Below, one piece after another: positions 50,160 through 58,478 of a DNA stretch of 64,000 nt (within the stretch, counting starts at the first letter, position 1; each line of letters begins with the position of its first letter). Both the position numbers and the translations under genes were made by a program. Under the pieces are notes generated by a model, which saw only the letters and a list, made by a program, of their open reading frames with translations, had not been told where the DNA came from and did no database searches. Source of the stretch: Armatimonadota bacterium (GTDB lineage: Bacteria > Armatimonadota > UBA5829 > DTJY01). The stretch spans positions 868 to 64,867 of the forward strand of contig JAGONM010000006.1 of assembly GCA_017993055.1 (NCBI GenBank), written 5' to 3'.

Positions 50160-51923
50160 CTACTTAGCCGTCAGGCTGAGGATGATTCCGACCAGTGCGT
50201 TCATGCCTTTCTTGAGATCCGCGCCGAGGTGGATTCGGAGCACCCGGCAGCCCTTCTCTCGCAGCGAGATGAAGTCCCCCATCGCCTGCGCGTCCTTCAG
50301 CGCCCCGAACGAGTAGACCTCGCCGGGGATGGGGACATCCTTCAGGTCGTCGGCCGTGATCTGGATGAACAGGCCCGTGTTCGGCCCGCCCTTGTGGAAC
50401 TGGCCGGTGCTGTGCAGGAATCTCGGGCCGTATCCGACGGTCACCGCGGCCTTGAGGTGGTCGGCGAGGGCGGACCTGATCGTCTTCAGGGCAACCTCGG
50501 CCTCGGCCGTGCGGCGCGTGAAGGCCATCAGCGCCACATAGTTGCCCGGCTCGAATCGCCTGAGGTGGGCGTCGAGCACCGCCTCGACCGATGCATTCTC
50601 GTACGAGCCGTTCTGTCGAATCTCATCCAGGATAAAGCCGGTCTCGTCGTCGGCGTAGGCGGCCAGGATTCCGTTGTCGGCGAGCTTGGTCTGGGCGGGC
50701 AGGGCGTTCTTCTGCTCATACTCCTTGATGAGTTCGCCGGTGATCTTCTTGCTGCTGCCCACGTTCTTCTGGTCGAACGCATTGACGGCAAGGAGCGCGC
50801 TCGCTACCGCTGTCGCCATCTCCCACCGAAAATACTCCTGGCCGATGTGAGTGGGGTTCTCTATATCTATGGTCACCAGTGGATGGCCTGCGTCGGCCAG
50901 TGCATCTGCCTTCACGTCCAAGCTGTCGTCCTTGGCGCCTTTGAGTTTCGTGTAGACGAAGAGGCGGTCGGCTCCATACATTTCGGATGGGCCGACGGGC
51001 TCGCCCTCGACCGGCAAGACGCCGCGCCCGTTCTTCCCGGTGCTCTCGGCGACGAGCTGCTCCACCCAGCAGCCCAGGCTCTCGATTTCGGGCGAGAAGA
51101 GAAGCGTCATCTTGTCGCGGCCTCGCATCGCGCATTCCGCCATGATCGCGCCGAGCGCCACGCCGGGGTTGTTCGGCCCGGGGCGCTGGTCGCTGCACTC
51201 CTCCATCATCTCCCGGGCGCTCTCCAGCATGCCCTTCACGTCAACGCCGATCAGTGCCGCGGGAACGAGCCCGAAGTACGAGAGAGCGGAGTACCGCCCG
51301 CCGATGTCCGGCATGTTGATGAACACCCGGCGGAATCCCCTGTCCCCGGCTTCGTGTTGCAGCCAACTGCCGGGGTCGGTAATCGCGGCGAAGTTCCGTC
51401 CGTCGCCGAGCTTGTCGAGGAAGTACCGATATGCCGACTTCGTCTCGATCGTTCCTCCGGACTTGCTCGAAACGACGAAGAGTGCGTTCGCGAGGTCAAT
51501 CTGCGCTTCAACGTCCAGCACGGCCTGGGGGACGGTGCTGTCGAGGACGAGCAGCTTGGGGAAGCCCTGCTTGCTGCCGAACGTGAGGTAGGAGACCTCA
51601 GGGCTGAGGCTGCTCCCTCCCATGCCGAGCACGATGACCGACGTGATTCCCGCGTCCTTGATCTCCTGCGCGAAACCCATCAACTCCTCGACGCGGTTGA
51701 GCATCGTGGACGGGACGTCGAGCCATCCCAGGCGATCAACGAGTTCCTTCGTCCCTGCGGGCTGCTTCCACGGTGCGGCGTCCTTCGCCCAGATCAGCCT
51801 GGTGAGCTGCTGGCGGTCCCACGACTCCAGCGCGGCGTCGACGATCTCCTGATACTGCCCGAGATTCGCGGAAAACGCGCCGTTCCCGCTTCCATAGGTA
51901 ATGCTCTCTGAGCCTGTTTTCAT
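50160..51923 (-). CDS. pgi: glucose-6-phosphate isomerase
   Basis: PGI signature 1 (DIGGRYSALSYFGLVPAAL) and the SIS motif VIVLGMGGSSLSPEV. Confidence 0.85.
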   Translation of the reverse strand: MKTGSESITYGSGNGAFSANLGQYQEIVDAALESWDRQQLTRLIWAKDAAPWKQPAGTKELVDRLGWLDVPSTMLNRVEELMGFAQEIKDAGITSVIVLGMGGSSLSPEVSYLTFGSKQGFPKLLVLDSTVPQAVLDVEAQIDLANALFVVSSKSGGTIETKSAYRYFLDKLGDGRNFAAITDPGSWLQHEAGDRGFRRVFINMPDIGGRYSALSYFGLVPAALIGVDVKGMLESAREMMEECSDQRPGPNNPGVALGAIMAECAMRGRDKMTLLFSPEIESLGCWVEQLVAESTGKNGRGVLPVEGEPVGPSEMYGADRLFVYTKLKGAKDDSLDVKADALADAGHPLVTIDIENPTHIGQEYFRWEMATAVASALLAVNAFDQKNVGSSKKITGELIKEYEQKNALPAQTKLADNGILAAYADDETGFILDEIRQNGSYENASVEAVLDAHLRRFEPGNYVALMAFTRRTAEAEVALKTIRSALADHLKAAVTVGYGPRFLHSTGQFHKGGPNTGLFIQITADDLKDVPIPGEVYSFGALKDAQAMGDFISLREKGCRVLRIHLGADLKKGMNALVGIILSLTAK

Positions 51924-52067: not shown

Positions 52068-52478
52068 GTGAATGAGCAGGAGGACGAAATGAACATGCCG
52101 TTCGGAGAGATCAAGAACAAGATGCTCGAGATGCGTTTTTCATCGGCAGACTACTCCATCGCGACGGTGCTGACCGCTGTGAGGGAGCATCTGGACCTGC
52201 TGCAGGAGATGGGCGTGAAGTTCCTCGGTGCGGCGACCGAGGTGTATGCCGGGCCTACGCCGGTGTTCCGGCCCACGGACATCAAGGCCGTCTTCGAGTA
52301 CGCCGGCTCGGGCGACGGCAAGGGATGTCTCGAGCGAGCCTACGAGGTCGTCTGGCAGGGAGTGGTCAACACCTTCCCCGACGAGAGCGAATGGGCGGAA
52401 GCGAAAGGTGCTTTCGCCGGATACATCCTGTCGCAGGCGGATCTGCTCAGGGCACGGACCGAAGGAGCCAGGGAGTAA
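52068..52478 (+). CDS. hypothetical protein
   Basis: 136-aa ORF with protein-like composition, 173 nt upstream of the DUF2207-like gene. No family recognised. Confidence 0.35.
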   Translation: MNEQEDEMNMPFGEIKNKMLEMRFSSADYSIATVLTAVREHLDLLQEMGVKFLGAATEVYAGPTPVFRPTDIKAVFEYAGSGDGKGCLERAYEVVWQGVVNTFPDESEWAEAKGAFAGYILSQADLLRARTEGARE

Positions 52479-52651
52479 GGAGTTCAGACGTCCAGGATCA
52501 GAGGAGAGAACCCGACCCGGCTGCGAATGAGGCGAGAGGCAGCATCGAATGGCGGTCCGGCCGTGCGACCTCCGGGCATTGCCTATCGCAGATCGCGCGG
52601 CTTCGCTGATTGGGGTCAGTCGGTTTTCCGGTGGTCGCTCGTAGCATCTAC

Positions 52652-54256
52652 ATGCGCAGACTCGTACCATACCTGACAGTCTTGCTGTTGCTCGTCGCCT
52701 TGACGACGGGGTATGCCCTCGACGCCCGGATGAAGTGGGTCGAGGTTGATGTCTCGCCGCACGCGAACGGTTTCGCCGATGTCGTCTACAAGATCCGGTG
52801 GAACGTCGTCAGCGGGGAGATGCACGCATTCTACTTCATGGGCTTCGGCGGCGCTGAGCCGACCTTCTCGCGAGAGCAGTGCTACGCGATCGATTCCGGC
52901 GGTCGGCGATACGGGCTCGATATAGCGAACCTCGGGGGCGGCAAGTACGACATTGTTCTGGCTGACGGCGCGGGCGCCGGATCGGGTGAGGTCACCTTCA
53001 TCCTTCCCTATGCCACGGACCTCGCCGGCGCGGGGATGCTCGACCTCACTAAGAGCGAGTTCGGCGAACTCGTGGTTTTCAACTGGTCGCCCGTGGAATG
53101 GGATCAGCCGCTCGAGCACGAGACGATCTACCTTCACTATCCCATCCAGGTGGAGGGTGAGCAGGTGACGCCCGAGCGCCTCGCGGAGGTCGGTTTCCGC
53201 ACGGAGAAGTTCGTAAACGAGCGATACCTCATCAGCTACTATGGACAGAAGTACGAGGGTACCTACTGGCTGACTGTCCGCTTCCACAGGAAAGACCTGC
53301 AGGCGCGTTACAACATGCGCGTGCAGGCCTATGTGTACTCGAAGTTCTTCCCGAACTTGCGGATTCCTGACTCGACCGGAGGGACCGGTCCTTCGTCTCT
53401 CGTCCCGAAGTCCTGGCCCGGACGTATCACTATCGCGATCCTGTTGGCGGTCGGCCTGGTGGGCATCGCGGTGGCGATGGTTCGTAAGAAGTACATGGCC
53501 TATTCAGCCGCCGCCGCCGAGATGGATGCCATTCGCTGGGATCGGACCGACTGGGTGCCGCCGAAGATAAAGGTCAGCAGCTTCCGCCAGGCCGGAAAGG
53601 TGGCGGATCTGCACCCGATCGAGGCTGCGTTCCTGCTCGATATCCCTGCGAACATGATTCTCGCCGCGATCGTGCTCGAGTTGGAGCGGAGGGGTCTGTT
53701 CAAGGTTCTGTCGCCCGATCCCCTTCGCGTCGAGCGCCTGTACCCCATCGGAGCGCTTCCCGACAAGCTCTACGAGGACATGATGTGGAACGCTGTCCGT
53801 GATGACGGTAAGCTCGACGACGGCGAGCTGAAGGCGGTGATCGAGCACATCGCGGACAATGTGCAGACGAAGTGCTGGGATTGCGACCTTGAGGCCACGA
53901 AGGAGTTCTACCGCAAGCAGATCAGGGAGCAGTTCGAGATCGCCGAGAAGAGCGGCACGGACGGGACGTATGATTCATGGGGGCACTCCTGGTCGCGGTA
54001 CTATGCATATCAGTTCCATCAGTACTCTCAGGGCAAGGAAACAGACGTGAGTCGGGGTATGCAGAAGGAACTGCCTTCACAGGGGATGGTCTCGGCGGCG
54101 GCAATTCGCGCGGACGCCTGTCACTCTGCCTGCTACGTTCACACCGCCTGCCACGACGCCTGCCACGATGCCTGTCACTCGGCCTGCCATTCAGCGTGCC
54201 ATTCGGCCTGCCATTCCGCATGCCATTCCGCGTGCGTGAGCGGGGGCGCGCGATGA
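52652..54256 (+). CDS. DUF2207-like membrane protein ending in an (Ala-Cys-His-Ser/Asp)n Cys-His repeat tail
   Basis: Signal/TM MRRLVPYLTVLLLLVALTTGYA. DUF2207-like N-terminal domain (VEVDVSPHANGFADVVYKIRWNVVSGEMHAFYF). Mid-protein TM (ITIAILLAVGLVGIAVAMV). The C-terminus reads ADACHSACYVHTACHDACHDACHSACHSACHSACHSACHSACVSGGAR, in place of the Gly-rich tail usual for DUF2207. Its stop overlaps the start of the rSAM gene (ATGA). Confidence 0.7.
   Translation: MRRLVPYLTVLLLLVALTTGYALDARMKWVEVDVSPHANGFADVVYKIRWNVVSGEMHAFYFMGFGGAEPTFSREQCYAIDSGGRRYGLDIANLGGGKYDIVLADGAGAGSGEVTFILPYATDLAGAGMLDLTKSEFGELVVFNWSPVEWDQPLEHETIYLHYPIQVEGEQVTPERLAEVGFRTEKFVNERYLISYYGQKYEGTYWLTVRFHRKDLQARYNMRVQAYVYSKFFPNLRIPDSTGGTGPSSLVPKSWPGRITIAILLAVGLVGIAVAMVRKKYMAYSAAAAEMDAIRWDRTDWVPPKIKVSSFRQAGKVADLHPIEAAFLLDIPANMILAAIVLELERRGLFKVLSPDPLRVERLYPIGALPDKLYEDMMWNAVRDDGKLDDGELKAVIEHIADNVQTKCWDCDLEATKEFYRKQIREQFEIAEKSGTDGTYDSWGHSWSRYYAYQFHQYSQGKETDVSRGMQKELPSQGMVSAAAIRADACHSACYVHTACHDACHDACHSACHSACHSACHSACHSACVSGGAR
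54116..54236 (+). repeat. about 10 tandem copies of a 12-nt unit (gcctgccaytc-n) encoding A-C-H-S/D
   Basis: Direct reading gives gcc tgt cac tct / gcc tgc cac gac / gcc tgc cac gat / gcc tgt cac tcg / gcc tgc cat tca / gcg tgc cat tcg / gcc tgc cat tcc / gca tgc cat tcc / gcg tgc gtg agc. The repeat is coding, at the 3' end of the DUF2207-like gene. Confidence 0.75.
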
Positions 54257-55590
54257 AGAGCGCGAGGTCGATTCGTGGTCTGGCCTGGATTGACGGTTTC
54301 GTCAGGAACATCCGGCCGCACGTCTTCGTCCGCAGGCGAGACAGCCTGCTCATCCTGATGCCGAACCAGGCCTATCATCTGAACCGTACCGGCGTCTACC
54401 TGCTCAGCCGGACCCTCGCCGGAGAGCCGATCAGCCGCGTGCTTGGTCGGGCGATCGCGAAGCAGGACCAGACTGATGAGCGAGTGCAAGAGGTCAACGA
54501 CTTCTTCTGCGACGTCCGAGCGCTCGTGATGGGATGCCTGTGCGAGGGGCAGGGTAGGCGGGCCGTCGAACAGGTGCCGTTCCGCCGTAGCGGGAGTATC
54601 CTGCCGGTGTTGAGCGAGATAGCGGTGACCTATCGGTGCAACCTCGAGTGCCGATTCTGCTATGCCGGGTGCAGTTGCGCGAAGAAGCCCGATTCGGCCG
54701 AGATGACGGCCGCCGAGGTCGAGGTGGTACTGCGAAGGATACGCAACGAGGCTGAGGTCCCCAGTGTCAGCTTCACTGGTGGGGAGCCGACGATCCGAGA
54801 CGACCTGCCGAGGCTGATTCGCTCGGCTGTACGCATCGGACTCAGGGTCAACCTGATCACGAACGGCACGCTCTTGACGGATTCGCTAGCGCGAGAATTG
54901 AAGCGTGCGGGGCTTAGGAGTGCTCAGGTCAGCATCGAGGCCCCGACCGCTGAGGTCCACGATGGACTCACCGGCGTCCCGGGTTCGTTCGAGCGCACGG
55001 TCTGTGGGATCGAGGCATTGAAGGGCCGGGGTATCTACGTCCACACGCACACGACCATCAACCGCGTGAACGCCCGGCATGTGGGAGATATGCCCGCGCT
55101 GGCGAAATCACTCGGTCTGCAGAGGCTCTCGATGAACATGGTGATGCCTTGCGGAACGGCTGGAACCGGCGAGACCGCGCTTCGATACGGTGATGTCGGG
55201 GATCTCGTACGGCTGGTGAAACGTCGCGCAAGGGACGCCGGCGTCGAGTTCATGTGGTATTCGCCGACCCCGTACTGTGTGTTCAACCCGATCGCCGCCG
55301 GCCTCGGCGGAAAAGCTTGTGCTGCGTGCGACGGCCTGCTGAGCGTCGCCTCGAACGGCGATGTGCTTCCTTGCTCCAGCCTCGCCGATCCGGTGGGTAA
55401 TCTGCTCGATCGGAGTTTTGACGGCGTCTGGAACTCGGATCGCGCGCTCTACTATCGAAACAGGGAGTACGTGCCGGCGGAGTGTCGCTCGTGCGGGCGC
55501 CTCAAACTCTGCAGCGGGGCGTGTCCGATCTACTGGGGCGCCTTTGGCTGCGAAGAACTGGTGGGCGCGAGCACGGAAGCGATCGAATGA
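54253..55590 (+). CDS. radical SAM/SPASM-domain peptide-modifying enzyme with an N-terminal PqqD-like RRE
   Basis: CNLECRFCYAG (CxxxCxxC). The C-terminal SPASM Cys cluster is CAACDGLLSVASNGDVLPCS...CRSCGRLKLCSGACP. The first ~100 aa (LLILMPNQAYHLNRTGVYLLSRTLAGEPISRVLGRAI...VNDFFCDVRALV) look like a PqqD-like RiPP recognition element. Start codon overlaps the upstream stop. Confidence 0.85.
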   Translation: MKSARSIRGLAWIDGFVRNIRPHVFVRRRDSLLILMPNQAYHLNRTGVYLLSRTLAGEPISRVLGRAIAKQDQTDERVQEVNDFFCDVRALVMGCLCEGQGRRAVEQVPFRRSGSILPVLSEIAVTYRCNLECRFCYAGCSCAKKPDSAEMTAAEVEVVLRRIRNEAEVPSVSFTGGEPTIRDDLPRLIRSAVRIGLRVNLITNGTLLTDSLARELKRAGLRSAQVSIEAPTAEVHDGLTGVPGSFERTVCGIEALKGRGIYVHTHTTINRVNARHVGDMPALAKSLGLQRLSMNMVMPCGTAGTGETALRYGDVGDLVRLVKRRARDAGVEFMWYSPTPYCVFNPIAAGLGGKACAACDGLLSVASNGDVLPCSSLADPVGNLLDRSFDGVWNSDRALYYRNREYVPAECRSCGRLKLCSGACPIYWGAFGCEELVGASTEAIE

Positions 55591-55617: not shown

Positions 55618-56679
55618 GTGGAGATGGCTGCGAAGAAAGAGAGACTTGAGTTTGCCATAGCATCAGGGATGCCCCTCGGGCCGAGGACGGTGTTGATCGC
55701 ATGCCTGATGTTCGCCGGCTTCGCGATTCAGCTCACCGTCTCGGTCTTGCTGGGATGGCTCTCGTTCCTCGCGGGCTGTCTGCTCGGTATCATCCGAGGC
55801 AGGAGCAACGCTCCGAAGATTCAGGGAAAGGGCGAGTGGGCGAACACGACGATTGAGGAACTGGAGCAGATCGAGAAGCTCTCCATCAGGATCCGCAGTT
55901 GGCGCGAGCGGACGGACGCCTTCCGCGCGACTTCCTGCGGCGGCTGCGTCATGACCCTCATCGGATTGCTCGCTCTTTTCATCTCGACCTTCCTGATCGG
56001 GAAGTACGTTGACCGGGTCGCGGACGGATACGAAATGTTCGCCAGGATGTTCCTGCCTGCGGTCAATGGGGGGTTGATCGCTTCGGTCTGGGTGATGGAT
56101 GTGCTTACGGTTTTTGTGCCCATCTGGTTCGCGGGCGGCATCTCTGCCTGGGAGCCGCCCGAACTCCCGCGCAAGGCGAAGTACCTGCTGGATATCCACA
56201 GGAGCTACAAGTTGGAGCCGGAGCTGGAGTTCGCCCCGAGCCTCCATGTGCAGAAGAAAGACGATCGCGCCATTCCGACCGACGCCCGGCTGATGATCAA
56301 GTTCAGGGGCGCGCCGAAGGAGTTCCTCGGCGTCCAGGTCCAGATATCGCTGAACAGCGTGCAGGGTACCAACTACCCTTACTGCTACGCCGTGATTCTT
56401 GCGAAGAAGGAGTTCGGTCTCGTGCGCCGCGCTCAAGAGTATCTCAAGGACGGCGACCAGACGGGGCTGCTCGGCCTGTTCAAGTCGGAGAACGACCGCA
56501 AGGAAATGGCGCACCAGAAGTTCGCCGATTCGATCGTGGAGACCGAGTCGCAGACCGACGTGGATGTCGTAGTGATCCGCCAGGTGACCGTCGGCAGAGG
56601 CTATCACACGACCGAGGAGCAGGCGATCGGGGTCGTGTCGGACGCGCTCGATCTTGCTCGACTCGTTCTGAAGACGTAG
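55618..56679 (+). CDS. hypothetical polytopic membrane protein (operon member)
   Basis: Several predicted TM helices in the N-terminal half and a soluble C-terminal half. 27 nt after the rSAM gene and 14 nt before pepF. Confidence 0.5.
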   Translation: MEMAAKKERLEFAIASGMPLGPRTVLIACLMFAGFAIQLTVSVLLGWLSFLAGCLLGIIRGRSNAPKIQGKGEWANTTIEELEQIEKLSIRIRSWRERTDAFRATSCGGCVMTLIGLLALFISTFLIGKYVDRVADGYEMFARMFLPAVNGGLIASVWVMDVLTVFVPIWFAGGISAWEPPELPRKAKYLLDIHRSYKLEPELEFAPSLHVQKKDDRAIPTDARLMIKFRGAPKEFLGVQVQISLNSVQGTNYPYCYAVILAKKEFGLVRRAQEYLKDGDQTGLLGLFKSENDRKEMAHQKFADSIVETESQTDVDVVVIRQVTVGRGYHTTEEQAIGVVSDALDLARLVLKT

Positions 56680-56693
56680 GCTGAATTGCGGAG

Positions 56694-58478
56694 GTGGTTT
56701 CCATGGCATCAGATAGCCCTCCGACCTGGGATTTGTCGGACCTGTACGGAGCAGTTGACGATCCGCGCATCGAGGAGACGCTTGTCGGGCAGCTTCGGCG
56801 GGCGGACGTGTTTGCGCGCAGGTATAGGGGTCGGATCAACCTGCCGGATGTCACGGCCGACGCGCTCTGGGGCGCGATCGTCGAGTATGAGACGATCCTG
56901 CAGGAACTCGACAAGCCGCTAACCTACGCTTCTCTCCTATTCGCCGCCGACACGAGTGATCCCGTGCGCGGGGCTTTCCTGCAGAGCATGCGTGAGCGCC
57001 ACTCCGAGATTACCATCCGTATGATGTTCTTCGAGCTCGAGTTGACGCAGATTCCCGAGGATCAGATGGCTGGACTGGTGAGCAATGACGTGCTTGACGA
57101 GTACCGGCACTACATCTGGGCCGAGCGCCTTTTTCGCCAGCACCGGCTGACTGAGCCTGAGGAGAGAATCCTGGAAGAGAAGGCGAACACCGGGCGGCGG
57201 GCTTTCACCCGCCTGTTCGAGCAGACGACTTCAAATATCGCGTTCGATGTAGACGGCGGGACGCGAACCCTGCCGGAGATCCTGGCACTCATCCGCGACC
57301 CCGACCGCGAACTGCGTCGGGCGGCCGCGGAATCCCTCACGTCTGGACTGCGGGACAACTCCGCGACGCTGACCTACATCTTCAACACGTTGATTCAGGA
57401 CAAAGCGACGGACGACCGGCTCAGGAGCTACCGATCACCCGAGCAGGCCCGGCATCTGTCCAACGAGCTCGAATCCGATACTGTTGAGTTGGTCGTCGAG
57501 ACTGCGGTGGCGAACTACCCTCTGGTTGGCAGGTACTATGGGCTCAAGCGCGAGATTCTGGGTCTCGACAAGTTGATGCACTATGACCGCTACGCTCCGC
57601 TCTTCCAGACCAGGGAGTGCGTCCCGTTCGCCCGCGCCCGGGAGATCGTCCTTTCATCGTTCGATCGTTTCAGCCCAATGATCGGCGGCGCGGCGAAGGA
57701 GTTCTTCGATCGCAACTGGATTGACGCCGAGCCTCGGAAGGGCAAGCGAGGCGGAGCGTTCTGCTCCTACGTCACCCCCGACCTGCATCCGTACGTCTTC
57801 GTGAACTACCTCGACCGCATGGACGACGTGATGACGCTCGGGCACGAGTTGGGCCACGGTGTACACTCCTCGCTGGCTGGCAGTCAGAGCTACTTCAACT
57901 TCGCCTCGGTCCTGCCCGTTGCCGAGCTGGCCAGCACTTTCGGCGAGATGCTTGTATTCGAAACGCTCCAGTCGCAGGCGGTTCTCGACGATAAGCTCGC
58001 GCTCTACGCCGAGAAGATCGAGGGCGCTTTCGCGACGATCTTCCGCCAGGCCGCGATGTACCGCTTCGAGCAGGCGATCCATGCGGAACGTCGGGAGAGG
58101 GGCGAGTTGACTGCGGAGCGTTACGGTGAGCTTTGGCAACATTTCCAGCGGGAGATGTTCGGCGACTCCGTGGAACTCGGGGACGAGCACGGTCTCTGGT
58201 GGATGTACGTACCGCACTTCATCAATTCGCCATTCTACGTCTACGCGTACACGTTCGGCGAACTGCTGGTGATGTCGCTCTATGCGATGTACAAGAGGGA
58301 GGGGGAGGTCTTCGTCTCGAAGTATACTGAACTACTCAAGGCCGGCGGCTCGATGACCCCGGCGGATATGCTCAGCCGCGTGGGGATTGACATCGGCGAC
58401 CGTGCCTTCTGGCAGGCCGGAGTGGATGTCCTGGCTGGACTCGTGGACGATTTTGAGCGACTCTGGAGAAATAAATGA
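56694..58478 (+). CDS. pepF: M3B-family oligoendopeptidase F
   Basis: HELGHGVHS zinc-binding HExxH motif. Length and overall similarity fit PepF. Confidence 0.85.
   Translation: MVSMASDSPPTWDLSDLYGAVDDPRIEETLVGQLRRADVFARRYRGRINLPDVTADALWGAIVEYETILQELDKPLTYASLLFAADTSDPVRGAFLQSMRERHSEITIRMMFFELELTQIPEDQMAGLVSNDVLDEYRHYIWAERLFRQHRLTEPEERILEEKANTGRRAFTRLFEQTTSNIAFDVDGGTRTLPEILALIRDPDRELRRAAAESLTSGLRDNSATLTYIFNTLIQDKATDDRLRSYRSPEQARHLSNELESDTVELVVETAVANYPLVGRYYGLKREILGLDKLMHYDRYAPLFQTRECVPFARAREIVLSSFDRFSPMIGGAAKEFFDRNWIDAEPRKGKRGGAFCSYVTPDLHPYVFVNYLDRMDDVMTLGHELGHGVHSSLAGSQSYFNFASVLPVAELASTFGEMLVFETLQSQAVLDDKLALYAEKIEGAFATIFRQAAMYRFEQAIHAERRERGELTAERYGELWQHFQREMFGDSVELGDEHGLWWMYVPHFINSPFYVYAYTFGELLVMSLYAMYKREGEVFVSKYTELLKAGGSMTPADMLSRVGIDIGDRAFWQAGVDVLAGLVDDFERLWRNK

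Follow-up and report, generated by a model that had tools for sequence, protein, structure and literature searches.

A widespread three-gene system pairing a His-x-Ala-Cys repeat tail on a membrane protein with an RRE-radical SAM-SPASM enzyme, its candidate modifier

Introduction

Much new peptide chemistry comes from maturases of the radical S-adenosylmethionine (SAM)/SPASM type, which usually act on precursors that are short and variable. In one such group, ACGX, the targets are A-C-G-x repeat peptides (TIGRFAMs entry). Relevant precedents include PapB, which installs six thioethers on repeated CX3D motifs (PMC9413430), TvgB and TigE, which form cyclopropylglycines in each copy of TVGG (at Val) and TIGSVS repeats, respectively (PMC9062424; PMC10878394), and HaaB, which joins His-C2 to Ala-C-beta on the motif H-A-A (PMC11499958). 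Here, we describe a repeat of His-x-Ala-Cys units found in a 64,000-nucleotide stretch of DNA from an Armatimonadota bacterium (GenBank assembly GCA_017993055.1, contig JAGONM010000006.1, positions 868 to 64,867 of the forward strand; hereafter the window, to which coordinates refer unless a locus is named). The repeat forms the C-terminal tail of a membrane protein (gene A), and is followed by genes for an RRE-radical SAM-SPASM enzyme (gene B) and for a second membrane protein (gene C). This three-gene A-B-C system is uncharacterized, and literature searches on it returned nothing relevant.

The closest described kind of system is that of the Cys-Xaa-Xaa-Xaa repeat targets of radical SAM enzymes (TIGR04117, Syntroph_Cxxx; PF27846, tSAM_targ_Cxxx_rpt), which likewise have a C-terminal Cys at every fourth residue and are encoded beside a radical SAM/SPASM gene. 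The substrate class found here is nevertheless unusual: the TIGR04117 profile spans 98 positions, whereas the tail described here is carried by a 534-aa membrane protein, and its His and Ala are invariant as well. In a scan of the tail at E ≤ 10, TIGR04117 was the sole curated model to touch it, at 15.0 bits compared with a cut-off of 50. The same model scores 10–15.5 bits on P0001, P0002, P0004, and P0005, and the PF27846 match on P0002 is faint.

The ACGX system (TIGR04340) also has a four-residue period that opens with Ala-Cys, beside a radical SAM/SPASM enzyme, but B scores 77.5 bits on this model (rSAM_ACGX, cut-off 400), the third position here is mostly His and never Gly, and the target is a large membrane protein. 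With the ranthipeptide and sactipeptide systems (PapB-PapA, CteB-CteA, and SkfB-SkfA), B shares an RRE, a CxxxCxxC radical SAM core, and a SPASM domain, although there is here no conserved Asp, Glu, or Thr acceptor, short precursor, protease, or exporter. At auxiliary cluster I (Aux I), B apparently has a fourth Cys (from a weak alignment), whereas in CteB and PapB this cluster has three Cys as ligands and keeps a site open for a substrate Cys (PMC10177961). Triceptide synthases acting on His (HaaB on H-A-A, and HtkB on H-T-K) use an aromatic-X-X3 motif with a free middle residue; the H-x-A of the unit described here fits this motif, and the present system differs in the Cys that follows each unit and in its 7–9 strict tandem units on a membrane protein. 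The HaaB, HtkB, and XyeB clusters are absent from the 25 listed of the 85 NCBIfam families matched by B, and no direct comparison with them was made. Cyclopropyl synthases (TvgB and TigE) are likewise RRE-bearing radical SAM-SPASM enzymes that modify a short tandem repeat copy by copy, but their GYW motif is absent from B, and the units here contain neither Val nor Ile.

The A-B-C system falls within no curated family. To our knowledge, no other RRE-bearing "peptide" maturase has a full-size membrane protein as its native substrate; the apparent substrate here is the tail of a conserved membrane protein, with a core that is nearly invariant over about a dozen phylum labels.

Results and Discussion

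A Three-Gene System Found Across Phyla

A word-index protein search recovered 12 relatives of A, and all of the full-length ones end in (x-C-H-x)n-ACVSGG or ACVSSGH. Among 1.84 billion representatives, a full HMMER scan found 609 relatives, 144 of them at E ≤ 1e-30, and a genome scan, reduced to one genome per species, gave 80 loci under about a dozen phylum labels. These labels comprise Armatimonadota (with the best match, at 72% identity), WOR-3, Sumerlaeota, Omnitrophota, Aminicenantes/Acidobacteria, Elusimicrobia, Planctomycetes, Lentisphaerae, Kiritimatiellae, Dehalococcoidia, Actinomycetota, and Desulfobacterota. The hosts are mostly uncultured and often belong to anaerobic lineages. A cultured host of the cassette, Desulfobulbus alkaliphilus DSM 24258, makes the system experimentally approachable.

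The anatomy, synteny, and conservation of the system are established from these genomes. Across 84 fetched loci, the order A-B-C occurs in every locus with enough DNA, with orthologues of B at 43–76% identity and of C (∼330 aa) at 25–64%, and the A/B and B/C junctions commonly measure −4 to +1 bp. In the window, the TGA stop of A overlaps the ATG of B at 54253 (ATGA). The initial annotation of this DNA had counted its own reading of the repeat as refuted should the tail be missing, or replaced by a Gly-rich one, in all relatives with no radical SAM linkage; the tail is retained in relatives, and the radical SAM gene accompanies it wherever the available DNA suffices.

Sequence of the Tail and Its Conserved Unit

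The tail makes up the last 46 residues of protein A, and the plus strand translates as ACHS-ACYVHT-ACHD-ACHD-(ACHS)5-ACVSGGAR followed by the stop codon (Table 1). A coding tandem repeat with a 12-nt period, as first annotated at 54116–54236, is present both in this translation and in the output of Tandem Repeats Finder (12-nt period, 54145–54235, matches of 81–87%). The sole match in the window to a degenerate three-unit pattern (GCN TGY CAY NNN x3) is this repeat, and 0 of 100 shuffles match. The same annotation had described the repeat as exact at the nucleotide level for several units, but no two of its 12-mers are alike, and the 11-mer that was given as the exact unit (gcctgccattc) occurs just twice, at 54182 and 54206. 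The longest word that recurs exactly has 14 nt (at 54179 and 54203), and its copies are non-adjacent. Codon differences between the units of the window are synonymous in 55 cases and non-synonymous in 12, all 12 of which exchange Ser and Asp at the variable fourth position.

The plus-strand frame is the real one, because homologues at 35–72% identity keep the same peptide tail. Two antisense open reading frames (ORFs), 54175..54489 and 53922..54353 (both on the minus strand), were considered as genes and rejected, as they overlap conserved plus-strand genes. The initial annotation had correctly treated the antisense HAEW frame as an artifact but had placed it in 53922..54353 (−), which reads NGMRNGRPNG; the HAEW frame is 54175..54489 (−).

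Context statistics were obtained for 99 distinct tails, containing 752 His and 850 Cys. Ala stands two positions after His in 99.2% of cases (746/752) and Cys three positions after it in 99.3%, while Cys immediately precedes 95.9% of the His residues. Read from the Cys, conservation is lower: the next residue is His in only 84.8% (721/850), and otherwise V, Y, P, A, or F, never Gly, and a further Cys follows at the fourth position for 724 of the 850. Between His and Ala, the residue varies freely (S in 494 cases, D in 155, G in 56, T in 20, A in 15, and N in 5). As judged from these tails, the functional unit is H-x-A-C and not the C-H dyad that had been proposed initially, because the insertions C-V-H-D-A-C and C-Y-V-H-T-A-C (of which the window has the second) separate C from H yet keep H-x-A-C. 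In one clade, the first His is replaced by Tyr (ACYSACHN). The terminal ACVSGG/ACVSSG is conserved as well as the repeat, and the Val of C-V-S-G-G is invariant; Val is limited to this terminus and to rare CVHD insertions, the units themselves having the form A-C-H-[SDG].

Copy Number and Age of the Repeat

Counted as [AVFM]-C-H-x, there are 8 units in 50 of the 80 loci and 7 in a further 27, with 9, 5, and 4 units in one locus each; the short tails belong to L001 (4 units) and L051 (5 units). Loci with the window's own tail type have 8 units in 23 of 24 cases, although they span 33–72% protein identity. Between deep lineages, the number varies from about 1 to 10, and some short tails may be assembly collapses. 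Unit differences amount to 1.9–2.0 relative to the positional counterpart in the nearest relatives, compared with 3.1–3.4 relative to other units. Adjacent units with the same peptide are identical in nucleotides in 9 of 306 pairs, compared with an expectation of 16.9 ± 4.0 when codons are shuffled among the units within each locus (500 shuffles); 498 of the 500 shuffles reach the observed count, and identical neighbors are thus depleted.

The tail was also compared with three further assemblies of this strain or one almost identical to it (L085, from SRR31933954; L086, from SRR31836865; and L087), two of which stem from independent samples; their nucleotide identities to the window are 98.8, 99.1, and 100%, respectively. 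Their tails are the same over the parts covered (L086 spans only the last 108 nt), and the sole change in the tail is a synonymous C>T at 54157.

The array is ancient and under strong purifying selection, and is not young or unstable. Purifying selection is evidenced by the near-identical peptide across phyla, the synonymous-only drift of the units, and the fixed copy number. The earlier proposal of a recent expansion, prone to slippage and variable in copy number between strains, is contradicted by the occurrence of the array under about a dozen phylum labels, by the depletion of identical adjacent units, and by the 7 or 8 units present in 77 of 80 genomes and unchanged in near-identical strains. 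Recent expansion and concerted evolution were both rejected on the adjacent-unit counts, the positional conservation, and the constant copy number of strains, and the marks of a slippage-prone contingency repeat, namely runs of identical units and copy-number change between close strains, were not found.

Enzyme B

Protein B is identical to MBP6963543.1, named "radical SAM protein" by NCBI, and its domain make-up is established. Pfam matches are to PF04055 (Radical_SAM; 95 bits) and PF13186 (SPASM; 35 bits). The N-terminal RRE region is matched weakly by PF05402, with hits (E from 3e-4 to 2e-2) that coincide in position in 4 of 6 orthologues, and a profile alignment of B to TigE (8VPO) begins at position 43, within the TigE RRE. 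No NCBIfam model reached its cut-off on B; the top matches are AhbD (147 bits, cut-off 500) and NirJ2 (131 bits). Every one of the nearest solved relatives modifies peptides or proteins (SkfB, PqqE, TigE, SuiB, anSME, and CteB).

The columns of the CxxxCxxC motif are invariant in a 20-sequence alignment (A3), in which each of the eight Cys of the SPASM region is invariant or at least 90% conserved. These SPASM residues were mapped one by one to CteB, SuiB, TigE, and anSME, which gave C356, C359, C374, and C424 as candidate ligands of Aux I. C356 and C359 stand where CteB has a single Cys and anSME has C255 and C261, and C359 aligns (in a weak pairwise alignment) with anSME C261, the fourth Aux I ligand. 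Aux I of B may therefore be fully ligated by protein. Membership of B in the cyclopropyl-synthase clade was considered and rejected: the GYW motif, which comes shortly ahead of the SPASM domain, is strictly conserved in and specific to that cluster (TigE residues 338–340; PMC10878394), whereas the equivalent position of B, by alignment, holds an invariant F333-x-W335-Y336-S-P-T-P.

The frame of B is open upstream through the repeat, giving LPRRLPRCLSLGLPFSVPF..., and the mechanically derived ORF extends over 53977..55590 (+). This longer ORF was rejected in favor of a start at 54253, on the basis of the orthologue start alignment and the 445-aa call by NCBI. At least one public annotation of B, at L087:3097-4467 (456 aa), starts inside the tail of A.

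Membrane Protein A

The ATG at 52652 agrees with the start of P0001 and with a 534-aa gene call in GCA_020047475.1 (L087); the TTG at 52610, the mechanical start of A, was rejected. Scans of A against Pfam and NCBIfam found no family (no Pfam match at E ≤ 0.01), and an exact look-up of the sequence from 52652 found no record in the look-up collection. Its AlphaFold2 (AF2) model has a mean predicted local distance difference test (pLDDT) of 70.9, with the predicted domains given in Table 1. Foldseek relates the beta-sandwich to the N-terminal domain of M1 aminopeptidases and to OST1/ribophorin I (E ∼1e-7). DUF2207 proteins (PF09972) likewise have a beta-sandwich at an extracytoplasmic N-terminus, with a transmembrane segment after it, and homologues of A score 15.9–24.1 bits on that model (cut-off 24.4), with a precomputed match for the fragment P0009. 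Unlike DUF2207, the A family has a specific cytoplasmic domain and the His-x-Ala-Cys tail.

By the positive-inside rule, the C-terminal ∼240 aa of A, including the tail, are predicted to lie in the cytoplasm, because basic residues (VRKKY) come after the transmembrane helix. In the AF2 model, the cytoplasmic domain is composed of a winged-helix-like unit and a helical bundle. It contains a near-invariant WDCDLEAT motif, with columns W409, D410, C411, D412, and L413 invariant in alignment A2. The Cys of WDCD was considered as an essential partner of the tail and rejected, as it is Ala or Ser in several tail-bearing relatives. The tail itself has pLDDT values below 50, and its model is hence uninformative.

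Proposed Mechanism and Alternative Explanations

The tail is quite probably a substrate of B. We infer that B modifies it unit by unit because of the tight linkage to a near-invariant repeat, the modifier-type relatives of the enzyme, and the precedents of radical SAM-SPASM enzymes that act on each repeat. In the proposed mechanism, A would be anchored in the membrane, with the beta-sandwich outside and the last ∼240 residues in the cytoplasm, and B, made from the overlapping next gene, would dock through its N-terminal RRE just upstream of the tail. B would then act once per H-x-A-C unit, 7–9 times per protein. In each cycle, a 5'-deoxyadenosyl radical would abstract a hydrogen atom, leaving one crosslink within the unit (−2 Da per unit). 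The crosslink could be a three-residue cyclophane between His-C2 and Ala-C-beta, as in HaaB, with 8–10 thiols left free, or a thioether from Cys-S to a carbon of His or Ala within H-x-A-C, formed iteratively as by PapB, with the imidazoles left free. We give these two options roughly equal weight, with a slight lean toward the cyclophane because Aux I of B may be fully protein-ligated, whereas CteB and PapB leave an open site. The free middle residue and the His-to-Tyr substitution of one clade would also fit a cyclophane.

The product would remain on A as a rigid ladder, with Cys or His ligands lined up at the membrane's inner face, and would act jointly with the membrane protein C, metal or redox handling being one example of a shared role. 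Three features favor a tethered product: the near-invariance of the core, the conserved and folded nature of the membrane protein A, and the lack of a protease or exporter that accompanies the cassette. A protein-tethered, RiPP-like (RiPP: a peptide made by the ribosome and then modified after translation) prosthetic group of ∼8 crosslinked H-x-A-C units, forming a metal- or electron-handling module with C, is a tentative picture that we hold with somewhat less than even confidence, with metal binding by the modified tail as a plausible candidate for the end function, though it would probably account for just a part of the tail's role.

Several points weigh against this picture. Modification of the tail is read from gene context and enzyme class, and a 534-aa membrane protein would be an atypical substrate for an RRE-bearing maturase. 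The lack of a conserved protease or exporter gives no hint of a released product. B is about equidistant from many SPASM families, so that its chemistry cannot be read from sequence, and the low-confidence AF2 model of the tail is uninformative. The argument from Aux I ligation is weakened by one of the 20 orthologues (L040), in which C359 is missing. Moreover, a cyclophane by itself leaves the invariant Cys unexplained, and a thioether leaves the joint invariance of His and Ala unexplained.

Explanations in which the tail is modified differently, or is left unmodified, were also weighed. The layout of an RRE-radical SAM-SPASM maturase beside a C-terminal core is the usual one for RiPPs, and the crosslinked tail might be cut from A, which would serve as a long leader, and be released or exported as a bioactive or metal-chelating peptide; a peptidase is found nearby in some loci (the M3 oligoendopeptidase of the window, at 56694..58478, and a C11 peptidase near the cassette in L001). 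This is unlikely, since neither a protease nor a transporter is conserved with the cassette across lineages, and the "leader" of 490 residues is a folded membrane protein that is itself conserved. The core, too, scarcely varies from phylum to phylum. Cores of secreted RiPPs are usually variable, and a strongly conserved core is more typical of cofactor precursors such as PqqA and MftA; the conservation pattern observed here is closer to that of the latter than to antibiotic peptides. It is improbable, to a degree slightly beyond this, that the tail is an unmodified Cys/His metal-binding segment whose length drifts between strains by replication slippage. A content of 9–10 Cys and 8–9 His in 46 residues is typical of metal-binding tails, and the wide range of unit numbers across deep lineages, with the short tails of L001 and L051, would agree with drift, although certain short tails are possibly assembly collapses. 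Slippage is contradicted by the window's lack of nucleotide-identical units, by the depletion of identical neighbors, and by the constant copy number of independent near-identical strains; ligand geometry alone cannot explain the invariant Ala and the H-x-A-C spacing, and the obligatory, often overlapping linkage to the gene of B argues for modification.

B could also act elsewhere, either on the terminal Val in the manner of a cyclopropyl synthase or by an anSME-like Cys oxidation, with the array serving only as ligands. The terminal ACVSGG/ACVSSG is conserved as much as the repeat, TigE (8VPO) is among the closest solved relatives of B with an alignment that extends into the RRE, and TvgB acts on Val (PMC9062424). 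Set against these, B has F-x-W-Y-S-P-T-P in place of GYW, the repeat units have neither Val nor Ile, and a reaction at a single site would leave the rigid per-unit spacing unexplained, so that we regard such a site of action as very unlikely. The motif of anSME substrates is C/S-x-P/A-x-R, and it is absent from the tail. Finally, the Cys-rich tail might be a platform on which Fe-S clusters or some other cofactor dock or are assembled, with B needing it as a partner and not as a substrate, as the NifU-/NifS-like genes directly downstream in 17 Elusimicrobia loci could suggest. That neighborhood is restricted to a single lineage and may reflect nothing but synteny, B already holds all of the cysteines needed for three clusters, and RRE domains bind substrate peptides (PMC10878394); a platform role is accordingly judged extremely unlikely.

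If B does crosslink the tail of A while it remains attached, identifying the bond on H-x-A-C and the ligand of the ladder could bring to light a protein-derived cofactor or a metal site that is new. The chemistry itself would possibly be new, whether it consists of serial His-Ala cyclophanes with free thiols flanking them or of His/Ala-Cys thioethers, and solving the system would give a function to three unannotated gene families.

Gene C, Neighboring Genes, and Variant Tails

Protein C is 100% identical to MBP6963544.1, annotated by NCBI as a hypothetical protein, and belongs to no Pfam or NCBIfam family. In its AF2 model (pLDDT 82.9), four transmembrane helices and a cytoplasmic alpha/beta domain are predicted; a Foldseek search of C against the PDB gave no significant fold match (best E 0.05).

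TABLE 1. Coordinates of the A-B-C system, its domains and motifs, and neighboring genes (window positions unless a locus is named).
Feature	Position	Strand	Remarks
587-aa protein	50160..51923	−	L087 copy has a phosphoglucose isomerase (PGI) domain
129-aa protein	52089..52478	+	Directly upstream of A
Gene A, 534-aa single-pass membrane protein	52652..54256	+	Repeat at C-terminus
A, signal-like helix	aa 5-18		AF2; precedes beta-sandwich
A, extracytoplasmic beta-sandwich domain, aa 24-229	52721..53338	+	AF2, pLDDT ∼80-90
A, transmembrane helix, aa 259-291	53426..53524	+	AF2 helix; basic VRKKY after
A, cytoplasmic domain, aa 305-473	53564..54070	+	AF2 secondary structure, pLDDT 75-85
A, WDCDLEAT motif, aa 408-415	53874..53897		In cytoplasmic domain
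A, repeat, aa 489-534	54116..54253	+	Proposed core/substrate of enzyme B
Gene B, 445-aa RRE-radical SAM-SPASM enzyme	54253..55590	+	
B, PqqD-like (RRE) domain, ∼aa 10-110	54280..54582	+	Weak PF05402
B, CxxxCxxC radical SAM cluster motif	54637..54660	+	C129, C133, C136
B, SPASM cysteines	55276..55524	+	C342, C356, C359, C374, C411, C414, C420, C424
Gene C, 351-aa membrane protein	55624..56679	+	Third cassette member
M3 family oligoendopeptidase	56694..58478	+	TIGR02290, 589 bits
NifU/NifS-type neighbors	L035:10163-10996 plus next gene		Examples L029, L035, L036

No universal fourth gene, such as a protease, exporter, or transporter, accompanies the cassette across lineages, and the flanking genes of the window (the M3 oligoendopeptidase and the 587-aa protein) are not conserved with it in other phyla. 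The 129-aa protein, for which no Pfam or NCBIfam family was found, occurs on the same strand 0–290 bp upstream of A in 17 loci (Armatimonadota/WOR-3, with the ACHSACYVHTACHD tail type), and may be a lineage-specific fourth component. In Elusimicrobia (17 loci), a 177-aa membrane protein is encoded directly upstream and NifU-/NifS-like (cysteine desulfurase) genes directly downstream, which could be a link to Fe-S supply or plain lineage synteny.

Among the relatives of A, distant full-length members have variant tails such as ACHSACVHDACHS, with up to 10 units and down to 1–2, and the most distant, AT-rich relatives have neither the tail nor the WDCD motif. The variant tails of P0132, P0141, P0146, and P0151 (ACHSACVHDACHS, with Val inserted before His) could help to define the tolerance of enzyme B; in P0132, a second array of CDSS/CHSS units comes after the His-x-Ala-Cys units. 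In three high-GC relatives (P0038, P0114, and P0040), the tail is in the wrong frame (LPQRLPLGLPQCLPL...) and is followed by hundreds more residues, probably as a result of frameshifts or gene-calling errors at the repeat, and such errors may hide family members in databases. One further relative, P0076 (540 aa), is A-like in its N-terminal two thirds, while its C-terminal part resembles the conserved domain at the C-terminus of protein C (…VQFQMAINNGPNGEVPYVYAVFITRG…). Either the assembly is chimeric here or A and C are naturally fused, and a real fusion would support a physical partnership of A and C.

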